From assembly GCA_019694855.1 (NCBI GenBank), contig JAIBBD010000003.1:33264-97263 (forward strand): 64,000 nucleotides of DNA. Direction: 5' to 3'. How positions within the stretch are numbered: the first letter of the stretch is position 1; each line of letters opens with the position of its first letter. This document shows positions 16,945 to 55,571 of the stretch, piece after piece. The position numbers and the translations under genes are program-made. The notes under the pieces are model-generated. The model had not been told where the DNA came from. It saw only the letters and a program-made list of their open reading frames with translations, and searched no databases. This DNA comes from Dehalococcoidia bacterium (GTDB taxonomy: Bacteria > Chloroflexota > Dehalococcoidia > UBA2979).

Positions 16945-19900
16945 CTACGACTTCCGCCGCTTTGACCGCGAGCGCATCACCAGCGTGAGCGCTACGACGA
17001 GCCCGGCGCCTGCGGCGAGCCACGAGATCGGGAGCGTCACGTTACGCTGCGCCCGCTCCTTCGCCACCTCGTAGGCCGACACGATCCGGTCCTGCGGGAC
17101 GTTGATCGAACCCGGGAAGTTCCCTCCACTGCCCGTGTTGGGCAGACGGCTCGGCACCGGCTGCGTCGGCGTGGGTGTCGGAGCCTGCACAGGTGGTGGC
17201 GAGCCCAACACCGTGGTCACGACGACCGGCTGGTACGTAATTGAGTGCGTATCACTCCCTGTCGCCGTCTTCTGATTCGGGTCAGTCACCACCGCCGTGA
17301 ACGTGTTCACGTGCGTCCCGAGGGATACCCCAGCCGGCACCGTGAACGTCGCGTCGAACGTGCAACTCGCCCCGATCGCCAGCACCGTGCCGACCTTGCA
17401 GTCGGCGTCGCCGCTCAGCGTCCCGAACTTGTCGTCGCTCAACGATGTGATCGTGACCGCGATCGGCCCCGTGTTCGTCACGGTGTACGTGTACGTCACA
17501 GGGCCGCCGGTCGCCGGCAGCGTCGTCGTCGCCGAGGTCTTGTCGACCAGGATCGAGGGCTGTGGGTTCGCTACGTAGGTAATTGTGTGCGAGTCCTTGC
17601 CCGTTGCCGTCTGCTGCTTCGGATCGGTCACGACCGCCGTGAACGTGTTCACGTGCGTCCCGAGGGCCGCGCCCGCGGGCACCGTGAACGTCGCGTCGAA
17701 CGCGCAGGACGCACCGACCGCGAGCACCGTGCCGACCTTGCAGTCCGCGTCCCCGACCAACGTGCCGAACTTGTCGTCACTCAGCGAGGTAATCGTCACC
17801 GACACCGGCCCGGTGTTTGTCACGGTGTACGTGAACTTCACAGGACCGCCGCCGACGGGCAGCGTGGTTGTGACCGAGGTCTTGTCCACCCGCACCGAGG
17901 GCTTCGGGTCGGCGAGGTACGTGATCGTGTGTGTGTCGTTGGCCGTCGCGGTCTGCTGGTTCGAGTCCGTCACCACCGCGGTAAAGCGGTTGATGTGCGT
18001 CCCGAGGTCAGCCCCGGCTGGGACTGTGAACGTCGCATCGAAGCTGCACGACGCCCCCACGCCCAGCAGGATCCCGACCTTGCAGTCCGCGTCTCCGGCC
18101 AGCGTCCCGAACTTGTCGTCGACCAGCGATGTGATCGTCACGGGCACCGGGCCCGTGTTCGTCACTGTGTAGGTGAACGTCACTGGCCCGCCGCTCGTCG
18201 GCAGTGTCGTCGTGACCGAGGTCTTGTCGACCCGGATCGCCGGCACCGGCACCTGGATATATGTGATCGTGTGCGAGTCGCTCGCCGTCGCGGTCTGCTG
18301 CTTCGCGTCCGTGACAACCGCCGTGAACGTGTTCACGAAGGTCGCGAGCACGGTCCCGCCCGGCACAGCGAACGTGGCGTCGAACGTGCACGAGGCGCCT
18401 ACGGCCAGCGGCGTCCCGACCTTGCAGTCGGCGTCACCCGCCAGGGCTCCGAACTTGTCATCGTTCAGGCTCGTGATCGTGACCGCGACCGGCCCGGTGT
18501 TCGTCACCGTGAACGTGTAGGTGACGGAACCGCCGCCCGCGGGCAATGTCGTCGTCGCCGACGTCTTGTCGACCCGCACCGAGGGCTTTGCGTCAGCGAT
18601 GTACGTGATCGTGTGATCGTCGCTGTCCGTCGCCGTCTTTCCGTTCGAGTCCTTGACGACGGCCGTGAACGTATTGATGTGCGTCGACAGCGCGCTTCCT
18701 GCGGGGACGTTGAACGTCCCGTCGAAGGTGCAGGAGGCGCCCGGCGCGAGCGCCGTCCCGACCTTGCAGTCAGCGTCTCCCGCCAGCGCCCCGAACTTGT
18801 CATCGTTCAGGCTCTGGATCGTCACCGCGACCGGCCCCGTGTTCGTCACCGTGTACGTAAACGTCACCGACCCGCCGCTCGTCGACAGCGTCGAGGTCGC
18901 CGACGTCTTGTCGACGAGCACGGACGGCTGCGGTTCCGCGATGTACGTGATGGTGTGGTCGTCCGTGTCGCTCGCCGTGTGGTCGGCGTTGTCGTGCACG
19001 ACCGCGGTGAACGTGTTCACGTGCGTCGTCTGTGCGGCGCCTGCCGGCACCGTGAACGCGGCGCTGAAGTCGCACCAGGCCCCGACCGCGAGCAGCGTCC
19101 CGACCTTGCAGTCAGCGTCTCCCGCGAGCGGCCCGAACTTGTCGTCGGTCAGGCTCTGGATGGTCACCGCGACCGGCCCCGTGTTCGTCACCGTGTACGT
19201 AAACGTCACCGACCCGCCGCTCGTCGACAGCGTCGTCGTCGCCGAGGTCTTGTCCACCAGCACCGCCGGCAACGGCGTCGCGAGGTACGTGATCGTGTGG
19301 TCGTCTGTGTCGCTCGCCGTGTGGTCGGCGTTGTCGTGCACGACGGCCGTGAACGTGTTCACGTGCGTCGTCTGCGCCGCGCCCGCCGGCACGGTGAACG
19401 CGGCGTCGAAGCTGCACGAGGCGCCCACCGCAAGTGGAGTGCCGACCTTGCAGTCCCCGTCACCGCTCAGCGTCCCGAACTTGTCATCGCTCAGGCTTTG
19501 GATGGTGACCGCCACTGGCCCTGTGTTCGTCACTGTGTAGGTGAACGTCACAGACCCACCGCTCGTCGGCAGCGTCGTGGTGACCGAGGTCTTGTCCACC
19601 AGCACCGACGGTAGCGGCGTGGCCAGGTAGGTGATCGTGTGGTCGTCCGTGTCGCTCGCCGTGTGGTCGGCGTTGTCGTGCACGATGGCCGTGAACGTGT
19701 TCACGTGCGTCGTCTGCGCGGCACCCGCCGGCACGGTGAACGCGGCGTCGAAGCTGCACGAGGCGCCCACCGCAAGTGGAGTGCCGACCTTGCAGTCCCC
19801 GTCACCGCTCAGCGCCCCGAACTTGTCGTCGCTCAGGCTCTGGATCGTCACGGGCACAGGCCCGGTGTTCGTCACCGCGTAGGTGAACGTCACGAGTCCG

Positions 19901-22566: not shown

Positions 22567-22803
22567 CCGAATACCTCACGTCTGGCGCGCGACCGCTCGA
22601 AGCCGAGCAACGGTCGCGGCGCGCTGAACAACGAGGCGCGGTCAACAGAAGGCGCTGTGAGTCGCGAGGCGCATTCGTCGACGAGGCATCGACGACCGGA
22701 GGCGAGTTGTCCGTAGGCGCGCTGACTGAGGGGCGATCAGTCAGAAGGACGGTCGAGGGGCGCTATCTGCACTGTGGAGGTCCGTCCGTCGGTCGTCCAC
22801 AGC

Positions 22804-25890: not shown

Positions 25891-25946
25891 CCGGGACCAA
25901 CCGTTAGTCCCTAGGTCGAACCTTCACTACGTGTTATCAATGCACG

Positions 25947-27512
25947 ATGACAGGACACACCCCCCTCTTCTCCCAGGTATCCCGCCTTCTGAACGAGGCT
26001 GACCGCCGCAACCGTGAGGAACGAGGCCTCAGTCGCCGCCGGTTCCTCAAGCGTGGCGCACTCAGCCTCGGAGCAGCCGCCACGGTCGCGGCCCTTCCAT
26101 CCGGAGTCTTCGCCAAATCCCAGCCGAGGATCGCCATCGTCGGCGCTGGCATCGCCGGCCTGAGCGCGGCCAACGAACTGCAGCACGCCGGCCTTACGGC
26201 GACCATCTACGAAGGTTCGAACCGCATCGGCGGCCGCATGTGGAGCGGTCACGGCATCATGGGGCCGGGCCTCACCACCGAGATCGGCGGTGAGTTCATC
26301 GACTCCGGCCACCGGGAAATGCTCGCCTACGCTCGGGCGTTCAATCTCCCCCTGATCGACGTCGAGTCCCCCAGCGAGCAGGCCCTGGTCAAGGCGTTCT
26401 ACTTCGACGGCCAGGTCAAGACCGCGGAGCAGGTCATCGAGGCCTTCCGGCCGGTCGCCGATGTGATCGCACGAGACCAGCGCAAGGTGGCCTTCACCGA
26501 CTACACGAACTACAACCAGCGCGCCCTCGAACTCGACAACACCCCGCTCTCCGACTACCTCGTGCAGGTTGGGGCCACCGGCTTCCTGCGCGAACTGCTC
26601 GACGTCGCCTACCTCACCGAATACGGCGGGGAGACGAATGTGCAGTCCGCCCTCAACCTCGTCTTCCTGATTGGCACGAAGACGAACCAGGGCTTCGAGG
26701 AGTTCGGTGTCTCCGACCAGCGCTACAAGGTCGTCGGCGGCAACCAGCGGATCACGGACGCCCTCGCTTCCCAGGTCCAACAGGGGGGCTCCCCGATCCG
26801 TCTCGGCGAGCGCCTCGTTGCCGTCCGTGAGCGGCGTGGTGGCGGACGCAAGACCTTCGTCTGCACCTTCGCTTCGGCCGGCGGCACGCACGAGGTCACG
26901 ACGGACATCCTGCTGCTGACCACGCCGTTCAGCGTCCTCCGCGACATCGACCTCGACGTCCCCCTTGTCCCGCGGGTCCGTCACTACATTGATGAGTGCG
27001 GTTACGGCACCAACTCCAAACTCGTGCTCGGCTTCAACCGGCGCTACTGGCGCGACTCCGGCTTCAGCGGCCTGTTCTTTACGGACCTCGCCCTGCAGTC
27101 CGGCTGGGATAGTTCGCAACTGCAGCCCGGCGACCTCGCCAGCCTCACCATCTTCACCGGGGGCAACCAGGGTATCGCCGCGGGCGCCGGTTCCCTGCAG
27201 TCGCAGCGCAATGCCGCCCTCCCCCGGGTCGAGCAGATCTTCCCCGGCGCCAACGCGAACAAGAACGACCGCGCCTTCCGCTTCATCTGGCCCACCTACG
27301 AGTGGAGCCGCGGCAGTTACACGTCGTTCACGCCCGGTCAGTACACCGCCTTCACCGGCAGCGCCCAGCCCACGGTCATCGGTGACTACCCCGAGCCGAG
27401 CGGCCAGCTCTTCTTCGCGGGCGAGCACCTCAACTTCGACTTCCAGGGCTACATGGAAGGCGGCGCCGTCTCCGGCAAGGAAGCCGCCCGCCAGATCGCG
27501 CGAGTCGCCTGA
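25947..27512 (+). CDS. Tat-secreted flavin-containing amine oxidase family protein
   Basis: Twin-arginine signal SRRRFLKRGALSLGAAA. FAD dinucleotide fold IAIVGAGIAGLSAA...YEGSNRIGGR. C-terminal amine-oxidase region. Confidence 0.85.
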   Translation: MTGHTPLFSQVSRLLNEADRRNREERGLSRRRFLKRGALSLGAAATVAALPSGVFAKSQPRIAIVGAGIAGLSAANELQHAGLTATIYEGSNRIGGRMWSGHGIMGPGLTTEIGGEFIDSGHREMLAYARAFNLPLIDVESPSEQALVKAFYFDGQVKTAEQVIEAFRPVADVIARDQRKVAFTDYTNYNQRALELDNTPLSDYLVQVGATGFLRELLDVAYLTEYGGETNVQSALNLVFLIGTKTNQGFEEFGVSDQRYKVVGGNQRITDALASQVQQGGSPIRLGERLVAVRERRGGGRKTFVCTFASAGGTHEVTTDILLLTTPFSVLRDIDLDVPLVPRVRHYIDECGYGTNSKLVLGFNRRYWRDSGFSGLFFTDLALQSGWDSSQLQPGDLASLTIFTGGNQGIAAGAGSLQSQRNAALPRVEQIFPGANANKNDRAFRFIWPTYEWSRGSYTSFTPGQYTAFTGSAQPTVIGDYPEPSGQLFFAGEHLNFDFQGYMEGGAVSGKEAARQIARVA

Positions 27513-32137: not shown

Positions 32138-32254
32138 CCCACCCTCATATCCGCGCCTGACCGCCCGACGAGAGGGTGTACGATGCGCTCCGGCCGCTCA
32201 GACGTCGGCTCGCCGACGAGCCGGCCCGAAGGCGCGCGAAGCGAGACACCCGCT

Positions 32255-32944
32255 ATGGCCCGGTCCGGCGACACCACCACCGATCTCGTCCACCGCGTGC
32301 CCCTGCTCGCGAGTCTCTCCGAGGAGGACATCCGCTCCCTCGCTCCCATCGCCGGCCGCCGTTCGTTCCGTCACGGCCACACGATCTTCCGCGAAGGAGA
32401 ACCGGGGGATTCCCTCTACATCCTGATCCGAGGGAGTGTCTTCATCACGATGCTCTCGAGCGACGGGGCGGAGAGCATCCTCGCGGTGCTACGCGGCGGC
32501 GATTGCCTTGGCGAACTCTCGTTACTGGACGGCTTCCCCCGCTCGGCTACCGCTCGCGCCGCCGAGGACGTCGACGCTCTCGTCGTGACCCGCGACCACT
32601 TCCAATCGTGGCTCGCCGATCACCACGCCGCCTCGCTCGCGCTGCTTCGGACGCTGAGCATGCGCATTCGCCGGACGAACGCCGCATTGGCCGATCGCAA
32701 CGCGCTCGACCTCTGGCAGCGGCTCGCCAAGCAGCTCCTCCTGCTCGCCGATGACCAGCCCCGCGCGTCAGCCTCCGACGGCACCGACCTCCGCGTGACG
32801 CAGCAGCAGCTCGCGGAGATGCTCGGCGTCACCCGCGAGGCCGTGAACAAGACGCTGCGCGAATTCGCACAGGCCGGCTGGATCGAACTCCGACGAGGGC
32901 TCGTCAGGATCTGTGACACCGCGAGCCTCGCGGAACAGTTGTAG
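32255..32944 (+). CDS. Crp/Fnr-family transcriptional regulator
   Basis: cNMP-binding-type beta-roll (GEPGDSLYILIRGSV...GELSLL) and a C-terminal HTH (TQQQLAEMLGVTREAVNKTLREF). An upstream GTG 32183 is an alternative start. Confidence 0.8.
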   Translation: MARSGDTTTDLVHRVPLLASLSEEDIRSLAPIAGRRSFRHGHTIFREGEPGDSLYILIRGSVFITMLSSDGAESILAVLRGGDCLGELSLLDGFPRSATARAAEDVDALVVTRDHFQSWLADHHAASLALLRTLSMRIRRTNAALADRNALDLWQRLAKQLLLLADDQPRASASDGTDLRVTQQQLAEMLGVTREAVNKTLREFAQAGWIELRRGLVRICDTASLAEQL

Positions 32945-33343: not shown

Positions 33344-34227
33344 TCACACAGCGATCATCGCAGCCAGCTCGTGACCGAGGAGCTGCCTCACCAGCGCCCT
33401 CAAGTCGCCGGCAGGCGCCCAGACCTCGTCGATGTCCAGAAGCGCATTGGCCAGGGCTGCTCCCTCGGGTGTCGCCTGGTACCGCCGCCGGCGGATCGCC
33501 TCCGCGAGCTCTGCGGCGGCGTCCGCCGACGCGGGAAGCAAGCGCTCATCGATGCCCAGCAGCGAGCCGGCGACGTTCCAGCTGTGCGCGTAGTCATAGA
33601 GCGTCCGCGCGTCGACCTGGACCCCCACCCGAGGCAACCGGATCGCCGTCATCCATGAGAGCGTGAGAAGCGTGGCCGCCAGGTCCTCCTGGTTGAGGCG
33701 CGCCTCCCCCGAGGGCGATTCGGGGCGAGTGCCCGGCTCTCCACTCAGGCGCAGCGCGGCGTGTAACAGCCGCACTCGCTGGATCGCGCGACGCCCGTCC
33801 GCACCGTCGCCCAGGCCGCCGGGGCTCATCACCGAACGGACGAATTCGGCGGTGCGCCGAACTCGGCGCAGCGGATCGACGCCGAGCGTCGAATGTCGGT
33901 TTAGTTCCCGTGCCACGGCCGCGTTGCAGTACGACTCCGGAAGCGCCCCGAAGCCGAGCACCGTCATCACCGCCGCCGACTCCCGTTCGAACAACGCCTG
34001 CCCTCGTCCGACTGCGGCGACATCCGTCCAGTCGGGGAGGCGGCCCGTCGCGACGAGGTAGGAATCGATCGCCGGGTGCCTCGGAAACCGCTCGTTGAGT
34101 TCGGCGATGAGTTCGCCGACCACGGCCGGCTCCCGCCCACCGCCGAGGATGGCAAGCACGCATTCGTCGGCGACGGCATCGCCGGTCGCGCGAAGCTCAT
34201 CGAGTAACTCGTCCGAGATGTAGGTCA
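33344..34227 (-). CDS. MpaB/DUF2236-family (ER-bound oxygenase-like) protein
   Basis: DUF2236-like helical protein. ATG 34227 with a GGAGAG Shine-Dalgarno sequence. Convergent with the crp gene. Confidence 0.65.
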
Positions 34228-34321
34228 TTTGCTCTCCGTCTGAGTCCACCAGAAACGCTCAAAAGACGTGACCACTCTCCTGCACGTATAGTCGTCCGCA
34301 ACCGAGACTGACAAGGTCCCA

Positions 34322-37120
34322 ATGCCTGCTATTCGCCAGACATCGCTACTGTTTGCCGACATCGAGGATTCGACTCGAATAGCACAGCTCATTGCCGAAT
34401 CCGCCGGAGAAGTCGCCTACGCGGATTTCTCCCTCGCCTACGAATCCCTGCTCCGAGACGCCTGCTCCGCGCACCACGGAGCGGTCGGTGGGACGTGGGG
34501 TGACGACTTTTACGCAACCTTTAGCTCCCCGCGCGACGCCCTGGGAGCGGCGTTCGCCATTCAAATGGCCGCAGCCACGCACGACTGGCCGCACGGCGCT
34601 CGTCTCCGCATCCGCATTGGCCTGCACCACGGCCGTGTCATCGAGAGCTCCAACGGCCTCGTCGGCATCGAGCTCCACCGCGCGATGCGGATATGCAGCC
34701 TCGCGCTCGGCGCCGAAGTGGTCGCGTCGGCCGCCTTCGTCGAAGCCACCCGGGGAGAACTTCCAGCGAAGTACGCCGCGATCGACCTGGGACTCCGCAG
34801 TCTCAAGGGCTTCGCCTTCCCCGAGCCCCTGTTCCTCATCGCACGTGAGGGCTGGATGTCCCGGCGGGTCGGTGAACGCAACCCGCTCGGCGACTGGGAG
34901 CGCCCGCTCAACCCGATCGTGGGTCGGGAGTCCGAAATCGCCGCCTTGAGTGAACTGCTTCACAGACCAGACGTCCGGCTCGTCTCAGTCTTGGGGCCCG
35001 GAGGGGTGGGGAAGACCCGCCTCTGCGAGGAACTAACAGCGCTCGAACAGGAACGCTTTCTGGACGGGGTCTACATGGTCAACCTGAGTGCGGTCGAGGA
35101 TCCTGCCCTCGTCTCCCGCCGGACGGCCCAGGCTCTCGGCCTGACGCCCGAACAGGGACGAGGCGACGCCGACCAGATCGCTGACCTCCTTGCCGACCGC
35201 CAGGTCCTGCTCGTCTTCGACAATTTCGAGCACCTGCGGCCAGCCGCCACCTTCGTGCGCGACCTCCTCACCCGCAGCTCCCGAGTCAAAGCGCTCGTGA
35301 CGAGTCGCACTCCACTCGGCATCCGGGGCGAGCAGCGCTTCGAGCTCCTCCCCCTCGCGACGAGCCCCGAGGACCGAGGCCTCAGCGGCCAGCCCGCCCC
35401 CGCCGCCGAGCTGTTCATGCAGCGCGCCCTCGCCACGCGGCCGGCGTTGGCCCTTGACCCGGCCGACCGCTCATTCGTAGACGACATCTGCACCACGCTG
35501 GATGGTCTCCCGCTCGCGATCGAGCTCGCCGCCGCCCAGGTCGACAACATGTCGCTCGGCACGCTCGCCCGCGGCCTCCGTATTCACCCGCTCCGACTCC
35601 TGGTTGACCCGGATCAGGACTACCCGGCTCGCCAGGCCACCATGACCTCGACGGTCTCCTGGAGCTACCAGCTGATCGAGGACGAGCAGGATCGGGCGCT
35701 CCTGGATGCACTCGCGACCTTCTTCGGCAGCTTCTCCGCGCAACAGGCGGCCGACCTCCTCAGCCAGCTGGGCAGGCCATCACACCTCGACGATGTGACC
35801 TCCGCGATTGAGCGCCTGCGGCGCCGGTCGCTCGTCCAGGTCGTCCGTGAGGCTGAACCACGCCGCTACCGACTGCTCCGGGTGATCCGCGAATTCGCCA
35901 TGGCGCGCCTGGAGGATGCCGGACAGGCGGACGCGGCACGCCAGGCGCATCTGGCCGTGCACGTGCGAATCGCCCAGCAGGCCGAGTTCGCACTGCAGGG
36001 GGAATCTCAGCTCGAGGTCATGGACTCGCTCGCGCAGGACATCGAGAACATTCGCGGCGCCCTCGCCTGTGCGAGTTCTACCCCCGACCTGGCCCCGGCC
36101 GGCATTCGCCTCGCCACCTCGCTCACCGTCTACTGGTGGCATGGACATATCGAGGAGGGCTCTCACTGGCTCAGCAGCCTGCTCGCGCTGTTGCCGGCTC
36201 CATCGAAGGTCAATCCTCGCGAACTGGGACGAGTCGCGCAGGCCCATCTGACCGTCGCGCTGCTCCAGCTCTATGGCGGCTCGCTCGCCAACGCTCGCCA
36301 GCATGTGGATGACTGCCTCGCGATCAGCGATAGCAATTCCCGCACTCTCGCGATCCAGGCCCTCGCGACGGCGCTCGCCGGAATGATCGAGGCGGCCGGC
36401 GGGCAGAGCGCCCGCGGCGAACGGCTGTGCGGCGATGGCGTCGCACGGCTCGACGCCATGGCGTTGCACTGGATGCTCGCGATCGCGCTCGAATGGCGTG
36501 GCGAAGCCGCTCTTCGTGCCGGCCATGACGGCCTGGCGGAGACCTCCTGGGAACGCTCCGTATCACTCTTTCGCGAACTCGGCGATCGCTGGCTCCAGGC
36601 TGCTCCCCTCGCCCGCCTCGGCGATCTCGCCCTCGACCGCGGCGATCTCGCGCGCGCTGGAGAGCTGCTCGCCGAGAGCATCGCTCTGCTCCGCGCCGTC
36701 GGCACAGGCGCGGGCTCCGCCCAGGTGCTCGCCAGTCTCGGTCGCCTCGCGCGAGCGGAAGGACGTTCTCGCGATGCTCGCATGCTCGCCGCCGAATCCT
36801 TGCGAGCTGCCAGCGCCTCTGGCAGCTGGCTCGAGGTCGATCTGGGCCTGTCGCTCCTGGCCTCCCTTTGCTCCGACGGACCGCACCCAGCGGACGCCCT
36901 CGAGGCCTCCAGGCTGCTCGGTGCAGCCGCGCGCATCCGCACCGCCGCCGGGCCGCTGGCCTCCTCCACCATCCAGCGCGGTGACGCTCATCTGGCGGTC
37001 CTCCTCAGGACAACACTCGGTACCGCGGCCTTCGAGGCCGCGTGGGCGGAGGGCCACGCCTCGACCACCGTCGAGGCCGTGGCGCTGGCGATCGGGTTGG
37101 CCGGCAATGCAGACGAATAG
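34322..37120 (+). CDS. Class III adenylate/guanylate cyclase domain fused to NB-ARC/AAA STAND NTPase and C-terminal TPR repeats (no DNA-binding domain detected)
   Basis: N-terminus LLFADIEDSTRIAQ...GDDFYATF (CHD metal and substrate motifs). Walker A GPGGVGKTRL, Walker B LLVFDNFE. Long alpha-helical TPR-like C-terminus. 932 aa. Confidence 0.85.
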   Translation: MPAIRQTSLLFADIEDSTRIAQLIAESAGEVAYADFSLAYESLLRDACSAHHGAVGGTWGDDFYATFSSPRDALGAAFAIQMAAATHDWPHGARLRIRIGLHHGRVIESSNGLVGIELHRAMRICSLALGAEVVASAAFVEATRGELPAKYAAIDLGLRSLKGFAFPEPLFLIAREGWMSRRVGERNPLGDWERPLNPIVGRESEIAALSELLHRPDVRLVSVLGPGGVGKTRLCEELTALEQERFLDGVYMVNLSAVEDPALVSRRTAQALGLTPEQGRGDADQIADLLADRQVLLVFDNFEHLRPAATFVRDLLTRSSRVKALVTSRTPLGIRGEQRFELLPLATSPEDRGLSGQPAPAAELFMQRALATRPALALDPADRSFVDDICTTLDGLPLAIELAAAQVDNMSLGTLARGLRIHPLRLLVDPDQDYPARQATMTSTVSWSYQLIEDEQDRALLDALATFFGSFSAQQAADLLSQLGRPSHLDDVTSAIERLRRRSLVQVVREAEPRRYRLLRVIREFAMARLEDAGQADAARQAHLAVHVRIAQQAEFALQGESQLEVMDSLAQDIENIRGALACASSTPDLAPAGIRLATSLTVYWWHGHIEEGSHWLSSLLALLPAPSKVNPRELGRVAQAHLTVALLQLYGGSLANARQHVDDCLAISDSNSRTLAIQALATALAGMIEAAGGQSARGERLCGDGVARLDAMALHWMLAIALEWRGEAALRAGHDGLAETSWERSVSLFRELGDRWLQAAPLARLGDLALDRGDLARAGELLAESIALLRAVGTGAGSAQVLASLGRLARAEGRSRDARMLAAESLRAASASGSWLEVDLGLSLLASLCSDGPHPADALEASRLLGAAARIRTAAGPLASSTIQRGDAHLAVLLRTTLGTAAFEAAWAEGHASTTVEAVALAIGLAGNADE

Positions 37121-38090
37121 CGCCGCCACCTGGATACCTCGGGCGGCCGAACGCCGTGCGCGCGCGTTTGACGCCGCTTGCGCCCACGCTCGGACCCACC
37201 TCGAGGATGCACAGCAGTGCGACCTCGTCCTCTCCATTCTCCGCGCCGCCGCGGAACGCGCCGCCGCGCCGGAGGCCCCTGCGCTGTTCCCGCTCACGGT
37301 CCACGTGCCGCTCGCGGTGCACGCGGCTTTCGAGGGCCGCGACGAGCCCGCGCTTCCCATCGCCGCCGCCGGGCTCCTCGTCCTCCTGGGAGCCGACCTG
37401 CTCGACACGCTGATCGATGATGACCCCTTCAGCGGTCCGTTGACGCCCGCCGAACGGTTGCTCGCCGGTGCCGGGCTGGTCGGCCCGCTCCCGACCCTCC
37501 TGCTGTTATCGATGGACGTCCCGCCTGACATCGCTCGCGAAGCGGCTCGTAACCTGAACGATGCCGTCGTCACCATGGGTGCCGGACAGCTTGCGGACCT
37601 CCGCTCACCGGCCGCCCCGTACACGTCCCTTCCGGGTGTCGTCGAGACCGCCGTCTTCAAGAGCTCGCCTCTGGTTGCGGCACTCTGCCGGATCGCGGCC
37701 CGCCTCGCCGGCGGCACGCCGGAACAGGCTGCCGCGGCCGGCCGTCTTGGAGCGGCGCTCGGGCTCGCCGACCAGCTTCGGGGGGATTGGGCCGACCTCG
37801 GCCGCCTCGACGGCAGCAACGACCTGCGCACGGGCGCCGTGACAATTCCCGTCGCCCTCGCCTACGAGCGGCAGTCCCTGCATGGCGATGCCGCCCGCCA
37901 CGCCGATGGAGCCGCGCGCGATCGCGCCTGGTCGATGCTCGACCGGGACTCGCGAGCAGCCCTCGTCAATGCGCTGCACTTCTGCCATCAGGCCGCATCG
38001 GCCGCCATCGACGACCTCCGGCTCCCCGAGGCTTGGTCGGCCGACTTGAGCTTGCTCGCCAACGCCGTCTGCTACGAAGGAGGCGAATGA
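37109..38090 (+). CDS. Polyprenyl-synthetase (trans-isoprenyl diphosphate synthase fold) homologue with altered Asp-rich motifs
   Basis: ATG overlaps the stop of the STAND gene (stop/start coupling). Segment-by-segment similarity to GGPP/FPP synthases: ALPIAAAGLLVLLGADLLDTLIDDD (FARM region, RRG absent), GQLADL, KSSPLVAALCRIAARLAGG, LGLADQLRGDWADLG (SARM DDxxD replaced by GDWAD), GSNDLRTGAVTIPVALA. Confidence 0.6.
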
Positions 38091-38139
38091 GGAAACCCCT
38101 TCGTCCCACCCAGACAACGCATGTGAGGAGTGGCCAGTA

Positions 38140-38460
38140 ATGTCGGACTTCGCCGACCTCCGAGACCTCGCGCTGAAGCTCAGCAACGAATTGCAGTCGG
38201 GAAAGATCACCGTGGCGCAGCTGCCCTCGGTTCAGTACCAGACCGCCGGCCTGAACCCGTTCTTGACGGAGGTCGACAACCAGCTCTTTAGCGTGCACAC
38301 GCGCCATCTGACGTCTCAGGAGCGCGATCTGCTCACCTACTACTTTCACCGCAACACCCCGGTGAAGGATCCGAACGAGGTGGCGGAACGCGTGGCCTGG
38401 ATCGCCCGTGGACCCAACGCCTTCTACTGGGGCCCCTGGATGCCGTACCAGGACCCCTAA
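38140..38460 (+). CDS. Hypothetical 106-aa protein with aromatic/Pro-rich C-terminus (…GPNAFYWGPWMPYQDP)
   Basis: ATG with a GAGGAG Shine-Dalgarno sequence. No known domain recognised. Sits between the prenyl-synthase homologue and the S8 peptidase. Confidence 0.5.
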   Translation: MSDFADLRDLALKLSNELQSGKITVAQLPSVQYQTAGLNPFLTEVDNQLFSVHTRHLTSQERDLLTYYFHRNTPVKDPNEVAERVAWIARGPNAFYWGPWMPYQDP

Positions 38461-38503
38461 CCCCGTCAGCTAACCATGCACTGACCCGATGGGAGGACCC
38501 CGC

Positions 38504-39769
38504 ATGACAATCCATGCCATGATCGAATTCGACATCCGCGCGGACGACGCCGCCCTGGAAGATGCGATCCGAGAGCTAATCCGGGCGGGTCGCCGCGACG
38601 GCAGCTTCTCTCGCATCCCGCTGGGGGATCACACGATCGTCAGCGGCGCCTTCGACGAAGACCGCCTGGAGGACCTCGCCGGCGTCGAGCGCGTCGTGCG
38701 CATCTACGACGATCCCGAGCTCACACCCTTCGCACCGAACTTCGTCAACACCGTCGTTGACGAGGCGCACGGCGACATCTTCAGCATCGCCTCTGCCCTC
38801 ATGGGCCCGCTCTGGACACACGGCCACCGAGGCGAGGGGGTACGCATCGGGATCTGTGACACCGGCATCCACCACAAGGAGAAGAAGCTCGCCCTCGAGC
38901 CGACGCGGGGATGGACGCCATCTGCCGTCTTCTCGATCGGGGAGGATGTGTCACTCGTTCCACACGGCACGATGGTCGCTCATGACGCGCTCGCGATGGC
39001 CCCGCTGTCGGAGGTGCTGGACATCGGGCTGCTCAAGATGCCCCACGGCACGCTGGCCGGGGTCGCGGATTGGCGACTCTCAGTCGCAATGGACGCCTAC
39101 CGCGCCGTGATCGACGGCTTCGTCATGGATCGTCGAGAGGAGACATACGGTCTCGTCCTCTGCAACAGCTGGGGCATGCGCGACCCCGAGGTGCGCTGGA
39201 ACATCGGGCATTACTCCGACGATCCGACCCACCCCTTCACCCGGCTCGTGGTGGAGGCGATCGATCACGGGATCATCGTGGTGTTCGCCGCCGGCAACTG
39301 TGGCTCCAACGGCGGCAAGCCGTACAGCCCTCGGGGATTCTCGGGACCCGGCAACAGCATCTGGGGCGCGAACGGTCACCCGCGAGTCATCACCGTCGGC
39401 GCCGCGGACTGGAACCGGAACTGGATGGGCTACTCGAGCGAGGGGCCATCATCCCTCGCTCCAAACATGATCAAACCGGATGTCTGCGGTATCAGCCAGT
39501 TCTCGGGCTTGATCGACATCGTCGGCAAGCCCGACTTCTCCTACCCCGACGCCGGCACCTCGGCTGCCGCACCGATCGTTGCCGGCGGCCTCGCGGTACT
39601 GAAGGGCAAGTACCCGAAGATGACCCAGGACGTGGCCGCGGCAGTCCTGAGGGCGACCGCGGACCACCCGGCCTCGGTCAACGGCGCGCCCGCCGCCGAC
39701 AACCAGTACGGCTACGGGATCGTCAACTTCCAGAAGGCGGACCAGCTGCTGCACCAGATCTACCCGTAG
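38504..39769 (+). CDS. S8-family subtilisin-like serine peptidase without signal peptide, with N-terminal I9-like propeptide
   Basis: Catalytic triad motifs GICDTG (Asp), HGTMVAH (His) and GTSAAAP (Ser). No N-terminal hydrophobic signal. GGGAGG Shine-Dalgarno sequence before ATG 38504. Confidence 0.85.
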   Translation: MTIHAMIEFDIRADDAALEDAIRELIRAGRRDGSFSRIPLGDHTIVSGAFDEDRLEDLAGVERVVRIYDDPELTPFAPNFVNTVVDEAHGDIFSIASALMGPLWTHGHRGEGVRIGICDTGIHHKEKKLALEPTRGWTPSAVFSIGEDVSLVPHGTMVAHDALAMAPLSEVLDIGLLKMPHGTLAGVADWRLSVAMDAYRAVIDGFVMDRREETYGLVLCNSWGMRDPEVRWNIGHYSDDPTHPFTRLVVEAIDHGIIVVFAAGNCGSNGGKPYSPRGFSGPGNSIWGANGHPRVITVGAADWNRNWMGYSSEGPSSLAPNMIKPDVCGISQFSGLIDIVGKPDFSYPDAGTSAAAPIVAGGLAVLKGKYPKMTQDVAAAVLRATADHPASVNGAPAADNQYGYGIVNFQKADQLLHQIYP

Positions 39770-39873: not shown

Positions 39874-41358
39874 CTACGTGTCCAGCCGCACCGTCCCCGC
39901 GGAGCCGTCCACGATGACGAAGCTCCCATCCGGGATCTGCGAGGTCGCACCGGTCACCCCGACCACCGCCGGCAACCCCAGTTCCCGGGCCACGACCGCC
40001 GCGTGGGTCAGCACGCCCCCGGCCCCCGTCACCAGCGCGCCAATCACCCCGAAGTACGGCGTCCACTCTGGCGCGGTCGCCGCGCACACGAGCACATCCC
40101 CGGGCTCGAGCTGGTCCGCATCCTCGAGTGACGCGATCACACGCACGCGCCCTCGGTACACCCCGCTCGACCCCGCAATCCCGTGCCAGACGCCCGTCTC
40201 CTCATTCGGCCCGGTACCTGCCCCCAGCCGCGTCGGAGGAGCCACCGCGCGCCACCGCGCCTGCTGCGCCCGCCGCCGCCCGACGAGGTCCGCCGCGACC
40301 GCCTCCCCCGTTTCGAGGCCAGCCACCACCTCGTCGAGTGACAGGTAGAAGACGTCATCGGCCGCTTCGATCAGCCCTCGTTCCCGCATCGTTTCCCCGA
40401 CGCGCAGCCAGCGTCGCCGCGAGGCCGCGATCAGCCGCTGGTCGCAGTGCAGGTTGTGATCCTCAGAGACCGGCGCCAGCCACTGCGCCGCCTGCAGCAC
40501 GTTCCACCCCAACTCGTCGAGGCCAACGGTCGACAGCTCCCGCTCCAGCTCGATCCGCCGCGCCCGCGCACGCTCCTCCGCGGCGGCCGGATCGCGCTCC
40601 TCCCCCTCGATCGCCATCGCCGCCACCATCGCCAGCGGAATCGAGGCGTCCTCCCGCCACGTCGGCAGGTCGATCAGGTGCATCGTGGTCGTGTCCCCGC
40701 ACAGTTCGATCAGCGTTTCGAACTGCTCCCGGAACGCGGTCGTCGCCGCCGAGGTGCCCGTGGGCATGCGTCCGGCGGCCACGTCGCTTCGCACCGCCTC
40801 GTCCTCCGCCGCGATCCGCGACAGCCGCCAGAGCAACACCGTCCGTGTCGTCGAGGTGTTCGCGAACCCGGCCAGCAGCGCCAGCGCGTCGTCCCGCCGC
40901 TCCGCGCCGAAGCGCTCCGCGTGCAATTCGAGCCAACGCGAGGCCGCGGGCAGCACCACGCCCATCGTCTCCATGTGCACCCGGCCGAACGCCGAGTCGA
41001 ACCCTGCGTCGAGCGCGAGCAACCGTTCGCGCCACTGCCCCGCCGCCACCGAACCCGGCTCGAACGTATCGAACGCGACCCGCGCATCCTCGATCGCCGG
41101 GGACAGCCGCTCCTGCCACCCCTCGAGCGCGTCGAGGTCGAACGGCCCGCTTCGCGGCGGCATCTGCCACTCCCGCGAATACGAATAGCCATTGACGTAC
41201 AGCTGCCCCGGCAACCCGTCCGGCTGCCCGCGCTCGTTCAACGACCGCACGCTCCGCTCGAGCAGCGTCGCCGATCCCGGCAGGTGCTCGTTGTAGATCC
41301 AGCTGATCGCCTCGTACTCGGAGCCCGGCAACCTGAACTCGAGCCCACGTTCAGCCAC
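39874..41358 (-). CDS. PEP-utilising-enzyme mobile (swivel phosphohistidine) domain protein with N-terminal uncharacterised region
   Basis: C-terminal GGVLTHAAVVARELGLPAVVG (the conserved His of PEP synthase, PPDK and rifampicin phosphotransferase swivel domains). 494 aa. Confidence 0.8.
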   Translation of the reverse strand: MAERGLEFRLPGSEYEAISWIYNEHLPGSATLLERSVRSLNERGQPDGLPGQLYVNGYSYSREWQMPPRSGPFDLDALEGWQERLSPAIEDARVAFDTFEPGSVAAGQWRERLLALDAGFDSAFGRVHMETMGVVLPAASRWLELHAERFGAERRDDALALLAGFANTSTTRTVLLWRLSRIAAEDEAVRSDVAAGRMPTGTSAATTAFREQFETLIELCGDTTTMHLIDLPTWREDASIPLAMVAAMAIEGEERDPAAAEERARARRIELERELSTVGLDELGWNVLQAAQWLAPVSEDHNLHCDQRLIAASRRRWLRVGETMRERGLIEAADDVFYLSLDEVVAGLETGEAVAADLVGRRRAQQARWRAVAPPTRLGAGTGPNEETGVWHGIAGSSGVYRGRVRVIASLEDADQLEPGDVLVCAATAPEWTPYFGVIGALVTGAGGVLTHAAVVARELGLPAVVGVTGATSQIPDGSFVIVDGSAGTVRLDT

Positions 41359-41417
41359 GCTGCACCGCCTGTCGCCTCTTCAGGGGGATGGGTGGATCAT
41401 GTCCCCGACCGCTCCGA

Positions 41418-42275
41418 ATGACAACGAGGTGCAATCTGCACGTGCTCGCGCTCGGCGCCCCCGGCAGCGACGAAGTCGGCCTCGTTGGCGCGAAGGCCGC
41501 CAACCTCGCGCGCCTGGCCGGCGCCTGTCGGGTCCCGCCCGGCTTCGTCATCCCCGCACGCCCCGCCGCCGGACCGCTGACGGACGAGGTCTGGCACGCG
41601 GTCGTCGAGGCCTACCACGCGCTCGCGGCCGAGGTGGCAGACCCGGATGTCGCGGTCGCAGTCCGCTCCTCCGCCGTCGACGAGGACGGGGATGCAGCGT
41701 CCTTTGCTGGCCAGCACGCCACGATCCTCGGCGTGCGCGGTGAAACCGCCCTCCGTGCAGCCGTCATCGAGGTGCTCGCCTCCGCGGTCACACCGGCGGC
41801 GCAGGCCTACCGCGCGGCCCACAACCTTCCCGCCGAGGACGTCCGCATCGCCGTCCTCGTCCAGCAGCTCGTCCCCGCCGAAGTCTCGGCTGTCGCCTTC
41901 AGCCAGAACGTCGTCGCCGGCGACCCGGACGAGGTTGTCATCAATGCCAGCTGGGGGCTCGGCGAACCCATCGTCTCCGGGGAGGTCACCCCGGACACCT
42001 ACCTGGTGAGCGCCCTCGAGTTCACCATCCTGCGCCGCGATCTCGCCGACAAGACGACGATGCGCGTCCGTACCCCCGGCGGCGTCGCCACCCTCGCCGT
42101 CCCCGACCAGCTTCGCCGCACCCCCGCCCTGGCCGATGCGCAGGCGGTCGCCATCGCCCATCTCGCCTGCGACCTCGAACGCACGATGGGCTGGCCCGTC
42201 GACATCGAGTGCGCCTACGCCGGCGGCCTGCTCTACCTCCTGCAGTGCCGGCCGATCACCACGCGGGCGGCCTGA
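41418..42275 (+). CDS. PEP synthase/PPDK N-terminal ATP-grasp (nucleotide-binding) domain protein
   Basis: VGAKAANLARL resembles the PPDK_N GGKxANL motif and the 286-aa size fits the domain. Divergent from the swivel-domain gene. An upstream GTG 41388 is an alternative start. Confidence 0.7.
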   Translation: MTTRCNLHVLALGAPGSDEVGLVGAKAANLARLAGACRVPPGFVIPARPAAGPLTDEVWHAVVEAYHALAAEVADPDVAVAVRSSAVDEDGDAASFAGQHATILGVRGETALRAAVIEVLASAVTPAAQAYRAAHNLPAEDVRIAVLVQQLVPAEVSAVAFSQNVVAGDPDEVVINASWGLGEPIVSGEVTPDTYLVSALEFTILRRDLADKTTMRVRTPGGVATLAVPDQLRRTPALADAQAVAIAHLACDLERTMGWPVDIECAYAGGLLYLLQCRPITTRAA

Positions 42276-49836: not shown

Positions 49837-51081
49837 CTAGTCCTCCCCCACCGTCCCGAGGCGCAACGGATCATCGTCCTTCGCGTCCAGCATCAGCTGC
49901 CGACGCGCCTGCACCTCCACCGGGAGCCCATGCAGCTTGATGAACCCGAGCGCCGCGGACTGATCGAACTGGTCGCCCTCGCTGTACGTCGCCAACGCGT
50001 GGCTGTACAGACTCCGCTCCGACTGCCGCCCGACCGCCGTCGCCGTCCCTCGATGCAGCCGCATCCGCACCTCGCCCGTCACATGCCGCTGCGTCGACTG
50101 CACGTACGCCGCCAGGTCCTGGTGGTGCGCCGTGAACCACAGCCCGTTGTAGATCAGGTCCGCATACTCCTGCGCCACCCGCTCCTTGAAGCGCAGCTGC
50201 AACTTCGTCAGCGTCAGCGCCTCCAGCGATCGATGCGCCTCCAGCAACGTCACGGCCGCCGGCGACTCGTAGATCTCGCGAGACTTAATCCCCACGAGGC
50301 GGTCCTCGACCATATCGATCCGCCCCACCCCGTGCTCACCCGCCAGCGCGTTCAGCCGCTCCACCAGCTCGACCGCACGCAACTCCTCCCCGTCGAGGGC
50401 CACCGGGGCCCCGTGGTCGAATCGGATCGTCACGTACGCCGGCTCCTCCGGCGTCGCCCGCACCGGCTTCGTCCAGGCATACACCTCCTCGGGCGGCTCC
50501 ATCCACGGGTCCTCGAGCATCCCCGCCTCGACCGACCTCCCCCACAGGTTCTCGTCCGTCGAGTACGGCGAAGCCACCGTCTGCTTGATCGGGATCCCGT
50601 GGCGTTCCGCGTACGCGATTGCCTCGTCGCGGTTCATCAGGTTCTCGCGCGCCGTCCCCACCACCTTCAGGTCCGGCCCCAGTGCCCGGATCGACACATC
50701 GAACCGCACCTGGTCGTTGCCCTTGCCCGTGCACCCGTGTGCCACCGCCGTCGCGCCCACCTCGCGCGCCTTGTCAACGAGCAACTTCGCGATCAACGGC
50801 CGTCCGAGGGCCGTCGCGAGCGGGTACGAGCCCTCGTACACCGCACCCGCGCCGAGCGCCGGGTACACGAAGAAACGCAGGAAATCCTCCTTGGCGTCGA
50901 CCACATCCACGGCCAGCGCCCCCGCCTTCAGCCCCCGCTCGCGCGCCGAATCCACATCCGGCAGCCGTCCGAGGTCCACCATCAGGCACACCACCTCGTA
51001 GCCGCGCGCTTCCTGCAGCCACTTCGTAGCCACCGAGGTGTCCAGCCCCCCGGAGTACGCCAGCACGATCGTCTCACCCAT
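49837..51081 (-). CDS. argG: Argininosuccinate synthase
   Basis: Start MGETIVLAYSGGLDTS (ATG 51081; the track ORF starts at GTG 51096). Full ArgG similarity across about 415 aa. Confidence 0.9.
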   Translation of the reverse strand: MGETIVLAYSGGLDTSVATKWLQEARGYEVVCLMVDLGRLPDVDSARERGLKAGALAVDVVDAKEDFLRFFVYPALGAGAVYEGSYPLATALGRPLIAKLLVDKAREVGATAVAHGCTGKGNDQVRFDVSIRALGPDLKVVGTARENLMNRDEAIAYAERHGIPIKQTVASPYSTDENLWGRSVEAGMLEDPWMEPPEEVYAWTKPVRATPEEPAYVTIRFDHGAPVALDGEELRAVELVERLNALAGEHGVGRIDMVEDRLVGIKSREIYESPAAVTLLEAHRSLEALTLTKLQLRFKERVAQEYADLIYNGLWFTAHHQDLAAYVQSTQRHVTGEVRMRLHRGTATAVGRQSERSLYSHALATYSEGDQFDQSAALGFIKLHGLPVEVQARRQLMLDAKDDDPLRLGTVGED

Positions 51082-51217
51082 GACCCGCTCCACCACTCAC
51101 CAAAGCACGAGGGAGTCGCCCGCCACACCGGTCAAACGGCGACGCGCCTGAGTATAAGAGCCCTCGCCGCTACCCTCCTCACGATGTGACCGGGACACGC
51201 CGACCGAAGCCCCCGTT

Positions 51218-51498: not shown

Positions 51499-52689
<1,191 letters not shown>

Positions 52690-52729
52690 GGTTCGCTCCT
52701 CTGCATCTGTGCTCGCGGCTCGTTGGAGT

Positions 52730-55549: not shown

Positions 55550-55571
55550 CAGGCGCCGGCCGAGCCAGTCA

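Follow-up and report, generated by a model that had tools for sequence, protein, structure and literature searches.

What task do four tightly packed genes share when they encode, in order, a cyclase-NB-ARC-TPR protein of the STAND NTPase class, a prenyl-synthase-like enzyme, a small aromatic-tailed protein, and an S8 subtilase? The locus lies in a window of 64,000 nucleotides, the whole stretch of DNA analyzed, from a Dehalococcoidia bacterium. A preliminary description proposed either that the small protein is prenylated, proteolytically processed, or both, or that the genes form an NLR-like defence system. Comparative genomics and published work on ComQ/ComX, PalQ/PalX, and StheQ/StheX give the first proposal the strongest support. 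Drawing on the gene order, conservation, folds, and motifs observed in the module, we consider it on balance probable, though far from certain, that the locus is a RiPP-type cassette for tryptophan prenylation of the ComQ/ComX kind, with its own leader peptidase and a STAND sensor or regulator. Table 1 lists the features.

Table 1. Features of the module and its upstream neighbours, in positions of the window.
Feature	Position	Strand	Size or residues	Basis or remark
CRP/FNR-type transcription factor	32183..32944	+		cNMP-binding domain and HTH_Crp_2; two genes upstream of module
MpaB/Lcp-family oxygenase domain protein	33344..34249	-		divergent from STAND start, 72-bp gap
Gene 1, STAND NTPase	34322..37120	+	932 aa	Pfam, NCBIfam, PDB match, L009 orthologue, dN/dS
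Gene 2, trans-IDS-fold, ComQ/StheQ/Ord1-like putative peptide (Trp) prenyltransferase	37107..38090	+	327 aa	motifs, AF2, Foldseek, profile search
Gene 3, putative precursor	38140..38460	+	106 aa	GC3, family conservation, AF2
Putative core peptide of gene 3	38410..38457	+	aa 91-106, GPNAFYWGPWMPYQDP	six-member alignment, AF2
Gene 4, S8 subtilase, putative leader peptidase	38489..39769	+	426 aa	catalytic residues, Pfam, synteny

All four co-oriented ORFs show coding-type GC3 (0.80-0.87) in the window. The tight spacing first described holds with small corrections: the gene 2 ATG occupies 37107-37109, rather than starting at 37109, and so overlaps the gene 1 stop codon (37118-37120) by 14 nt; the 50-bp gap after gene 2 is 49 nt; and the gap of about 44 nt before gene 4 fits only a start at ATG 38504. 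That start, preceded by a GGGAGGA Shine-Dalgarno sequence, is the more likely one, and it yields a protein of 421 aa, the length called in L001.

The genes are co-conserved across genomes, with their order kept in four lineages at 27-57% protein identity. The same four-gene order appears in L006 (prenyl-synthase-like protein 96% identical), in L007+L004 (identities 57% and 48%), in L013 (38% and 36%), and in L009 (33% and 27%), where the flanks are unrelated to those in the window. The junction of the STAND and enzyme genes is an overlap or an 11-nt gap in every lineage, and in L001, L004, L006, L009, and L013 the S8 gene comes immediately after the small gene. The operon is rare. In the lineage of L001, L002, and L003, the small and S8 genes remain, but STAND has been lost, as have two thirds of the gene for the enzyme; the remaining pair either functions independently or is what is left of a cassette in decay.

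The small ORF is conserved as a protein, in a family with only 6 clusters among about 15 billion proteins. It has a GC3 of 0.87 and a GAGGAG Shine-Dalgarno sequence 8 nt 5' of its ATG. As first described, its C-terminus is aromatic (NAFYWGPWMPYQDP), and the family alignment shows P92, W97, G98, and P99 invariant in 6/6 members, within a tail motif YWGP(W/Y). The AF2 model gives an ordered helical domain, a candidate leader at residues ~5-90, followed by a disordered tail with pLDDT <50 at residues 96-106. Searches with Pfam and NCBIfam, and an hhalign comparison (probability 1%), detected no NHLP/Nif11 relationship for the leader.

Gene 2 has the trans-prenyltransferase fold that the preliminary description assigned to it, lacking RRG and the second DDxxD, as borne out by Pfam, motifs, and the AF2 model (pLDDT 79.5, pTM 0.84), which Foldseek matches to trans-IDS structures at TM 0.65-0.75. 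PF00348 matches only over the C-terminal half (31.1 bits). Among the Foldseek matches, identity is highest (23-24%) with Ord1, an indole prenyltransferase of the all-alpha-helical type (PDB 9V4G-J; PMC12510300), which also tops a PDB search with the gene 2 family profile (3e-11), with ordinary synthases barely behind (3.9e-11). Ord1 shares the DxxxDxD first motif and the Q-(I/L)-R ahead of the second, but its FARM is still followed by RR and its second motif still has DD. Family members of gene 2 keep D97, D100, D104, and D106 in a FARM-like GADxLDxxxDxD, along with MGAGQxxD, the diphosphate Lys K185, and Q223; in the family alignment GKRxR and RRG, the basic motifs for IPP binding, are both missing, and the second Asp motif has lost its first Asp, reading GDWAD within a pseudo-SARM G226-D227-x-x-D230. 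On sequence criteria, these losses are the signature of indole prenyltransferases of the ComQ/PalQ/StheQ/Ord1 type. They are expected of such an enzyme and not of a dead one; the earlier label "degenerate" is misleading.

A close parallel comes from the same phylum. StheQ/StheX of Sphaerobacter thermophilus (Chloroflexota) pairs a ComQ-family peptide Trp prenyltransferase with a 69-aa precursor whose residues 1-59 are ordered and 60-69 disordered; the enzyme's residues are D82/D85/D89/D91, K174, and Q212-x-x-N215-D216-x-x-D219, with N215 of the pseudo-SARM reported as important (bioRxiv 10.64898/2026.08.29.745113). In both loci a trans-IDS-fold enzyme gene is followed at once by a small gene, and in both precursors an ordered helical N-terminal part leads into a disordered, Trp-containing tail. 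By the residue numbers quoted in that preprint, gene 2 reproduces the spacing of StheQ in D97/D100/D104/D106, K185, and Q223-x-x-G-D227-x-x-D230. The differences are that N215 is replaced by Gly in gene 2 (Gly, Ala, or Ser across its family at the ComQ/StheQ pseudo-SARM Asn position), and that StheX carries WW at -3 and -2 whereas gene 3 is longer, with a YWGPW motif and its Trp 9 residues from the end. The gene neighbours of stheQ/stheX are not discussed in the preprint (bioRxiv 10.64898/2026.08.29.745113).

Bacillus ComQXPA comprises the isoprenyl transferase ComQ, the pre-peptide ComX, the histidine kinase ComP, and the response regulator ComA (PMC4008528, PMC5331326). It shares with our module four co-oriented genes, an enzyme next to its precursor, a linked signal-transduction protein, and a polyprenyl-synthase-like enzyme with FARM present and a true SARM absent. 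The Trp of ComX is prenylated; here prenylation is predicted. In place of the two-component pair, the module has an upstream cytoplasmic cyclase-NB-ARC-TPR NTPase; the ComX protease is unknown, whereas a dedicated S8 enzyme is encoded here; and gene 3 is twice as long as ComX and unrelated in sequence. No protein of the module matched ComX- or ComQ-specific models. PalQ of Paenibacillus alvei PalQ/PalX/PalP is a Trp prenyltransferase of the isoprene-synthase superfamily (PMC10853753). PalX resembles gene 3 in having a long leader (~80-100 aa), which when folded enhances modification (PMC10853753), although that leader is NHLP-type and, in a further difference, PalQ requires a C-terminal Trp (PMC10853753). 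A sensor gene adjoins in both systems, a histidine kinase in the case of PalP. The trans-IDS-like peptide prenyltransferases characterized so far all target Trp (PMC13290415).

The S8 subtilase has an intact catalytic set (D124/H159/N270/S358). As first described, it lacks a secretion signal, with no N-terminal hydrophobic signal found; the proposed I9-like propeptide is unsupported, as PF05922 gave no match in Pfam, and the protein carries an N-terminal extra domain of ~110 aa. Its context points to a putative role in leader cleavage.

Under the favoured reading, gene 3 would encode the precursor, its helical domain docking on the gene 2 enzyme so that the disordered tail GPNAFYWGPWMPYQDP could enter the active site. 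By analogy with characterized homologues, gene 2 is predicted to transfer a prenyl group to Trp. It would bind and ionize an allylic prenyl diphosphate through the first Asp-rich motif, Mg2+, Lys185, and Gln223; since it would do so but be unable to bind IPP, the prenyl group would go to an indole, most likely that of the invariant Trp97, probably at C3 and with closure to a pyrroloindoline, as happens in ComX, PalX, and StheX. The cytoplasmic S8 protease would then remove the leader and perhaps also the last few residues. The STAND protein, translationally coupled to the prenyltransferase, would be the module's sensor or regulator.

Domain matches bear out the composition first given for gene 1, a cyclase, STAND ATPase, and TPR region with no DNA-binding domain. 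An N-terminal class-III cyclase-homology domain (aa ~5-175) matches Guanylate_cyc at residues 5-109, borderline at 22.1 bits against a cutoff of 21.9; NB-ARC, AAA_22, and AAA_16 match at residues ~200-330, with an NB-ARC-type Walker A (GPGGVGKT, 225-232) and Walker B (LLVFDNFEH, 296-304); and a long helical/TPR region, with TPR_12 at 761-830, extends to aa 932. No HTH, BTAD, or LuxR domain was found in gene 1 by Pfam at E<=0.1, and likewise none in its L009 orthologue at E<=0.1, so the suspicion of a cryptic C-terminal HTH found no backing. Ma1120 cyclase is the closest PDB match (E 5e-13), and dN/dS against L006 is 0.11. With 41% identity, the orthologue in L009 aligns collinearly, cyclase motifs included, and Walker A and B are conserved between the two. 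The earlier suggestion that the cyclase provides the output is uncertain: both metal Asp residues (D13, D61) and Arg123 are kept, but because the canonical substrate Lys and transition-state Asn are replaced, by Gly57 and His119 respectively, activity is in doubt.

From its context, the gene 1 product is probably a sensor or regulator, and possibly a receptor of the product. In the version we prefer, its TPR/helical sensor would bind a peptide ligand, which would be the precursor or the lipophilic product; ATP-dependent oligomerization would then pair cyclase-homology domains into dimers making a cyclic nucleotide, for which cNMP-binding proteins, for instance the CRP-type factor encoded two genes upstream, would serve as readers. 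That factor is a possible reader; its gene is not conserved beside the module in L009.

We regard as unlikely, yet worth serious weight, that the same biosynthetic core is served by a STAND protein that answers some other intracellular cue, as an LAL/AfsR-like pathway-specific switch rather than a product receptor. It might act through a cyclic nucleotide, or without catalysis, using its TPR region to hold precursor or enzyme as a scaffold or chaperone. In favour of this, large ATPase-TPR proteins are common as cluster-situated regulators, the enzyme gene is start/stop-coupled to gene 1 in every lineage, which suggests that the two products are made in stoichiometric amounts, and the cyclase domain lacks the canonical Lys and Asn. 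Weak, collinear NCBIfam matches to AfsR and to HaaT, a TPR protein of a cyclophane RiPP pathway, point the same way, but they fall far under cutoffs and cover TPR repeats only. Retention of the metal Asp pair and Arg of the cyclase domain between 41%-identical orthologues argues for a working nucleotide-binding site and against this alternative, as does the lack of a DNA-binding domain. Mycobacterial Rv0386-type and LAL/AfsR proteins also join an N-terminal class-III cyclase with non-canonical substrate-specifying residues to a STAND-type ATPase and TPR, but they carry either a LuxR-type HTH at the C-terminus or a SARP DNA-binding domain at the N-terminus. Gene 1 differs in having neither and in being operon-coupled to a peptide-modification cassette.

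Quite improbable, in our estimate, is that gene 2 is non-catalytic or a small-molecule isoprenoid enzyme and the S8 protease acts on something else. Gene 2 might then partner the small helical protein as the regulatory subunit of a heteromeric prenyl synthase, for in heteromeric trans-IDS enzymes a small helical subunit accompanies a large one, or it might prenylate a free indole or aromatic metabolite. The latter variant is suggested by the best PDB match, Ord1, which farnesylates free tryptophan, not a peptide (PMC12510300). That the L001 lineage keeps the small and S8 genes but not gene 2 also fits this alternative.

A sister clade of prenyl-synthase-like proteins (P0008, P0009, and P0010; 27-31% identity in a MAFFT alignment) supports the peptide-modifying reading. 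Each adjoins NHLP-clan RiPP precursors, and NF038399 scores above cutoff in 3/4 of the sister-clade precursors scanned. An HExxH protein also adjoins the enzyme in L014 and L015; the clade follows the same enzyme-precursor-protease logic with a non-homologous protease. Its precursors contain no Trp, and the enzyme lineage is therefore not tied to Trp.

The pairing of a ComQ-family enzyme with a Trp-tailed precursor has thus been described before, recently in Chloroflexota, and to that extent the earlier claim of an undescribed system falls; it stands for the coupling of a cyclase-STAND protein and a cytoplasmic S8 protease to such a pair, which was not found in the searched literature. What is new is the cyclase-NB-ARC-TPR protein, which is tightly coupled, free of a DNA-binding domain, and found in place of a histidine kinase.

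Very improbable is an NLR-like anti-phage or abortive-infection system, with the STAND protein sensing a phage cue, a cyclic-nucleotide signal, an S8 effector, and the small protein as pro-toxin or S8 substrate: a STAND NTPase that carries an N-terminal effector domain and a repeat sensor is a hallmark of defence, known defence systems include subtilase and cyclase modules, and PADLOC matches the S8 protein faintly to its "subtilase" and IetS models (E 7e-5 and 3e-4), but PADLOC reaches the STAND protein solely at the P-loop (E 1.5e-3) and genes 2 and 3 not at all, the conserved prenyltransferase-like enzyme and Trp-tailed protein would be left without a role, and the sister-clade enzyme is paired with bona fide RiPP precursors. 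With no meaningful PADLOC match and no mobile or defence genes around the module, the defence hypothesis gains no support; the surrounding genes are housekeeping ones (transporters, arginine biosynthesis, DsbA/B, enoyl-CoA hydratases). The MpaB/Lcp-family gene occurs in L006 and is missing beside the L009 module, and is therefore a lineage-specific neighbour outside the core.

Four plus-strand ORFs at 34.3-39.8 kb, in a window of about 70% G+C, have third-position GC of 0.80-0.87, as in real genes, and encode in order a STAND protein, an enzyme, a small protein and an S8 peptidase. The enzyme gene begins slightly upstream of position 37109, where the preliminary description had placed its start. 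A search of 33.9-40.1 kb for promoters and terminators yielded no informative signal. Flanking the module are chromosomal housekeeping genes, including those for a CitMHS transporter, a CRP-type factor, DsbA/DsbB, arginine biosynthesis and enoyl-CoA hydratases. Coordinates of these and other features are collected in the table.

Features of the window and of related loci (window positions unless a locus is named)
Feature	Position	Strand	Description
VWA-domain ORF	16945-22575	-	about 1,876 aa; VWA domain, then many DUF7507, DUF11 and CARDB-type Ig-like repeats
Amino_oxidase gene	25908-27512
CRP/FNR-type regulator	32183-32944	+	cNMP-binding domain; two genes upstream of the STAND gene
MpaB/Lcp-family oxygenase domain protein	33344-34249	-	divergent from the STAND start, 72-bp gap
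Gene 1, STAND protein	34322-37120	+	932 aa
Gene 2, enzyme	starts at ATG 37107	+	14-nt overlap with the gene-1 stop
Gene 3, small protein	38140-38460	+	GAGGAG ribosome-binding site; 49 nt downstream of gene 2
Gene 4, S8 peptidase	ATG 38489 or 38504	+	two in-frame ATGs
Rph_4th and PEP-utilizers swivel protein	39874-41358	-	494 aa; directly after the S8 gene
PPDK_N ATP-grasp protein	41388-42275	+	295 aa; other half of a split rifampicin-phosphotransferase-like pair
Argininosuccinate synthase (Pfam)	49837-51096	-	420 codons
Adjacent ORF	51499-52758	-	420 codons
UPF0182 protein	52730-55639
ArgJ	56364-57737
Enzyme remnant ORF	L001 1618-1971 (also L002 1-317, L003 2-244)		117 aa; new 28-aa N-terminus plus the last 89 aa
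SCP2-type and Amino_oxidase genes	L009 11717-15750	-	downstream of the module
Sister-clade loci	L014 5666-7201 and 2588-5503; L015 365-3438; L016 43-1238

The small protein is very rare. Three clusters appear in a word-indexed search, just two more, both remote (P0006 and P0007), come from a full HMMER pass through 1.84 billion representatives, and its sequence clusters number six among about 15 billion proteins. The nearest public relatives are MAGs labelled Dehalococcoidia. A scan of genome contigs with the small-protein alignment returned 15 pattern matches and no relatives, and the sole metagenome match, on contig L008, was set aside as a chance match of 16 residues in a non-coding frame context.

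The preliminary description had proposed that the four genes form a single module, and they are indeed co-conserved, with the same order on every sufficiently long contig carrying a relative of the small protein. Contig L006, with 96% enzyme identity, is fully syntenic with the window. In L007 and L004, two contigs from the same study with identities of 57% for the enzyme and 48% for the small protein, the C-terminal end of the STAND gene overlaps the enzyme gene and is followed by the small gene, the S8 gene and a convergent PEP-utilizer gene. The more distant L009 (62.6% GC) has a STAND gene (937 aa) overlapping the enzyme gene by 4 nt, then the small and S8 genes, within unrelated flanks; identities are 33% for the enzyme, 27% for the small protein, 41% for STAND and 37% for S8. 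L013 (enzyme 38%) carries a STAND fragment, the enzyme and small genes, and an S8 fragment. That the STAND gene is invariably coupled to the enzyme gene speaks for the STAND protein as part of the module.

The lineage of L001, L002 and L003 (small protein 93% identical) no longer has the STAND gene or about the first two thirds of the enzyme gene, and keeps the small gene, the S8 gene and the downstream synteny; NUDIX and Hpt-like genes precede the enzyme remnant there. The small gene of the window is identical to that of L006 and differs from that of L001 by seven non-synonymous changes and one synonymous change, all within residues 16-55, so that substitutions among the nearest relatives are too few for a dN/dS estimate.

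The enzyme is predicted to have the all-alpha trans-isoprenyl diphosphate synthase fold (AF2 model, pLDDT 79.5, pTM 0.84), and Foldseek matches the model to GGPPS, OPPS and Ord1 at probability 1.00 with TM of 0.65-0.75. Ord1 is both the highest-identity PDB match of the enzyme and the top PDB sequence match of the family profile, the latter only just ahead of ordinary synthases. A canonical chain-elongating polyprenyl diphosphate synthase is rejected: PF00348 covers residues 145-257 only (31.1 bits), scores against all NCBIfam synthase models fall 10-fold or more under their cutoffs, and neither GKRxR nor RRG, the canonical IPP-binding motifs, occurs in the family alignment of four lineages. 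The second Asp-rich motif (SARM) is degenerate and has lost its first Asp, with the conserved Gln a turn before it, reading Q223-L-R-G226-D227-W-A-D230 in the window enzyme and [GAS]-D-x-x-[DEN] in its relatives. Loss of RRG and of the second DDxxD had been recognized in the preliminary description; the alignment, with G-D-W-A-D at the second motif, agrees.

Invariant across the four lineages are the first Asp-rich motif (FARM), GAD97xLD100xxxD104xD106, which in this enzyme class serves to bind the prenyl donor and Mg2+, together with MGAGQxxD164, K185, R195 and Q223-L-R-x-D227; D97, D100 and D104 are invariant in a sister clade as well. The trans-IDS-like indole prenyltransferases, which include ComQ, PalQ, the P domain of ChrPC, StheQ and Ord1, combine a functional FARM with a pseudo-SARM and a conserved Gln (PMC10853753; PMC13290415). 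StheQ, from Sphaerobacter thermophilus, also of the Chloroflexota, has demonstrated prenylation activity with its precursor StheX, and its listed residues are D82, D85, D89, D91, K174, Q212, N215, D216 and D219 (bioRxiv 10.64898/2026.08.29.745113). By these published residue numbers, the Asp series runs +3, +4, +2 from D82 as it does from D97 of the window enzyme, Lys and Gln stand 38 residues apart in the two enzymes, and the Gln is followed in both by Asp at +4 and +7. The sole exception is Asn215 of StheQ, which is Gly in the window enzyme; the pseudo-SARM of ComQ and StheQ is N-D-x-x-x/D, whereas the Asn is not conserved in the window family. Judged from its conserved residues, the gene-2 product shows the signature of the described trans-IDS-like indole prenyltransferase class.

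In its AF2 model the small protein, the putative precursor, is helical over aa 5-90 (pLDDT 75-90) and ends in a tail predicted to be disordered (residues 96-106, pLDDT below 50). The tail reads NAFYWGPWMPYQDP. Ten positions are invariant among six homologues (A5, L7, F41, L65, W87, P92, W97, G98, P99 and P106), and W97 is the only invariant Trp of the tail. This architecture resembles that of StheX, ordered over residues 1-59 and disordered over 60-69 (bioRxiv 10.64898/2026.08.29.745113), and the helical domain recalls the folded NHLP leader of PalX (PMC10853753). The small protein, P0006 and P0007 have no Pfam or NCBIfam match, including to the NHLP, Nif11 and Os1348 models. The helical leader has no fold match, and hhalign gives it a probability of 1%, that is, no relationship, against the NHLP-clan precursors of the sister clade.

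The S8 peptidase (PF00082, 81.6 bits) has its catalytic triad (D124, H159 and S358) and oxyanion Asn (N270) in family order, all conserved also in L004 and L009. The preliminary description had given it an I9-like propeptide and no secretion signal; no signal peptide is found, and no I9 domain is detected either. The second of its two ATGs follows GGGAGGA and agrees with a 421-aa gene call in L001; from these sequence features, it is probably the true start. A plausible role for this protein is that of a putative dedicated leader peptidase. We know of no protease yet assigned to the leader of ComX, and the S8 protein offers a candidate leader protease.

We consider the odds slightly in favor of the module being a peptide prenylation cassette of the ComQ-family type. 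The biosynthetic half is then a very rare new member of an already known kind, ComQ-family peptide prenylation. Tryptophan prenylation of this type was long regarded as a peculiarity of Bacillus, and its biochemical demonstration in a single Chloroflexota isolate is very recent. The window locus and its relatives would add a second Chloroflexota family, distinct in sequence and with a new type of precursor.

Next closest to the enzyme are the sister-clade proteins P0008, P0009 and P0010, which are 27-31% identical in the MAFFT alignment and 31-35% identical over the best BLASTP segments. They come from a Clostridia MAG (L014), the only hit when genome contigs were scanned with the enzyme alignment, and from metagenomes. 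Each adjoins one or two small genes; three of the four small genes scanned pass the NCBIfam cutoff for the Os1348 NHLP-clan precursor family, and the precursor cores contain no Trp. An HExxH protein is also present in L014 and L015, and the complete one in L014 has 971 aa and two cNMP-binding domains. The sister clade repeats the scheme of an enzyme with a precursor and a protease, the protease being a different one. Recurrence with differing proteases is typical of RiPP clusters. By sequence, the sister clade looks like a RiPP family not yet described, whose enzyme may target an amino acid other than Trp; its Trp-free NHLP precursors and HExxH protein hint that trans-IDS-like enzymes may do so.

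Gene 1 encodes an NB-ARC-type STAND NTPase with a repeat sensor. Pfam places NB-ARC (28.9 bits, cutoff 23.5), AAA_22 (34.8, cutoff 27) and AAA_16 at aa 200-330 or so and TPR_12 at 761-830, and the STAND motifs are GPGGVGKT at 225-232 (P-loop) and LLVFDNFEH at 296-304 (Walker B). The class-III cyclase domain at aa 5-109 is a borderline Pfam match (22.1 bits, cutoff 21.9); the cyclase-homology domain matches the Ma1120 cyclase with an E-value of 5e-13. Both metal-binding Asp residues (D13 and D61) and the transition-state Arg (R123) are kept. Gly57 stands in place of the substrate-specifying Lys and His119 in place of the canonical transition-state Asn; the Asn of Ma1120 is aligned to Glu117. 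The L009 orthologue has the same cyclase-site residues, and STAND orthologues are collinear over their full length, including FADIxxST, WGDDF, RIGLHxGRV and LHRAxRI. STAND regulators of the LAL, AfsR-SARP and LuxR types carry a DNA-binding domain, whereas the window protein has none (no LuxR/GerE HTH or SARP winged helix in Pfam or NCBIfam at E<=0.1), as the preliminary description had concluded; none is found in the L009 orthologue at E<=0.01.

In comQXPA, a ComP-type histidine kinase and a ComA-type response regulator adjoin Q and X. Neither is near the window module: no HisKA, HATPase or response-regulator domain occurs among the genes scanned from 25.9 to 46.3 kb. The literature searched does not describe coupling to a cyclase-NB-ARC-TPR protein instead of a two-component sensor, and the coupling of this protein to the cassette makes the novelty of the locus as a whole. 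We offer as a hypothesis that peptide sensing here could proceed by way of a STAND NTPase bearing a cyclase domain, independently of a histidine kinase. For what the STAND protein senses, one speculative reading is as follows. The ComQ-like enzyme, together with the S8 protease, would yield a prenylated, membrane-permeant Trp peptide, and the STAND protein, co-translated with the enzyme, would sense it within the cell through its TPR arm; ligand-driven oligomerization would then switch on the cyclase domain and so turn the peptide signal directly into a cyclic-nucleotide second messenger, for which CRP-type or further cNMP-binding proteins would be the readers. The CRP-type gene upstream of the module is kept in L006 and absent beside L009. 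That the STAND protein is an intracellular receptor of the prenylated peptide with cyclic-nucleotide output, forming a new pheromone circuit, we regard as rather improbable. In such a circuit, an NLR-like receptor of bacteria would serve cell-cell signaling rather than immunity, and would be the first to be assigned to any ComQ-type system beyond the Firmicutes; it would link NLR-like oligomerizing sensors, cyclic-nucleotide signaling and lipidated peptide pheromones. If the STAND protein is not the receptor, peptide engineering would still gain from the cassette, in compact form, a new Trp-lipidating enzyme with its substrate and a protease.

The preliminary description had also raised an NLR-like defense system with the protease as effector. 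This finds no meaningful match in PADLOC-DB: the module returns one match at the level of the P-loop (E 1.5e-3) and weak generic subtilase matches, and no model matches gene 2 or gene 3. An NLR-associated amyloid signaling motif, in which a motif at the effector C-terminus is mirrored at the NLR N-terminus, is rejected because the STAND N-terminus is the cyclase domain and has no copy of YWGPW.

The MpaB/Lcp-like oxygenase gene is present in L006 and does not adjoin the L009 module. Characterized members of this family cleave isoprenoid chains. The window protein is unrelated to the DUF8367 protein upstream in L009, and the oxygenase is therefore not a core component. In L009, the genes downstream of the module encode two SCP2-type lipid-binding proteins and two Amino_oxidase/FAD (phytoene-desaturase-like) proteins, and the window also carries an Amino_oxidase gene; this may reflect a lipid or isoprenoid theme, or coincidence.

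The PEP-utilizer gene after the S8 gene occurs also in L006, L001, L002 and the 48%-identity L004, and in L006 and L001 the PPDK_N gene adjoins it. L009 has an Rph_4th/PEP-utilizers gene some 8 kb downstream of its module. The Rph-like pair near the S8 gene may represent a functional link or lineage synteny. Elsewhere in the window, the long VWA-domain ORF probably encodes a large surface or adhesin protein, and the ORF adjacent to the argininosuccinate synthase gene, with ArgJ and the UPF0182 protein encoded nearby, may be its tandem paralogue.
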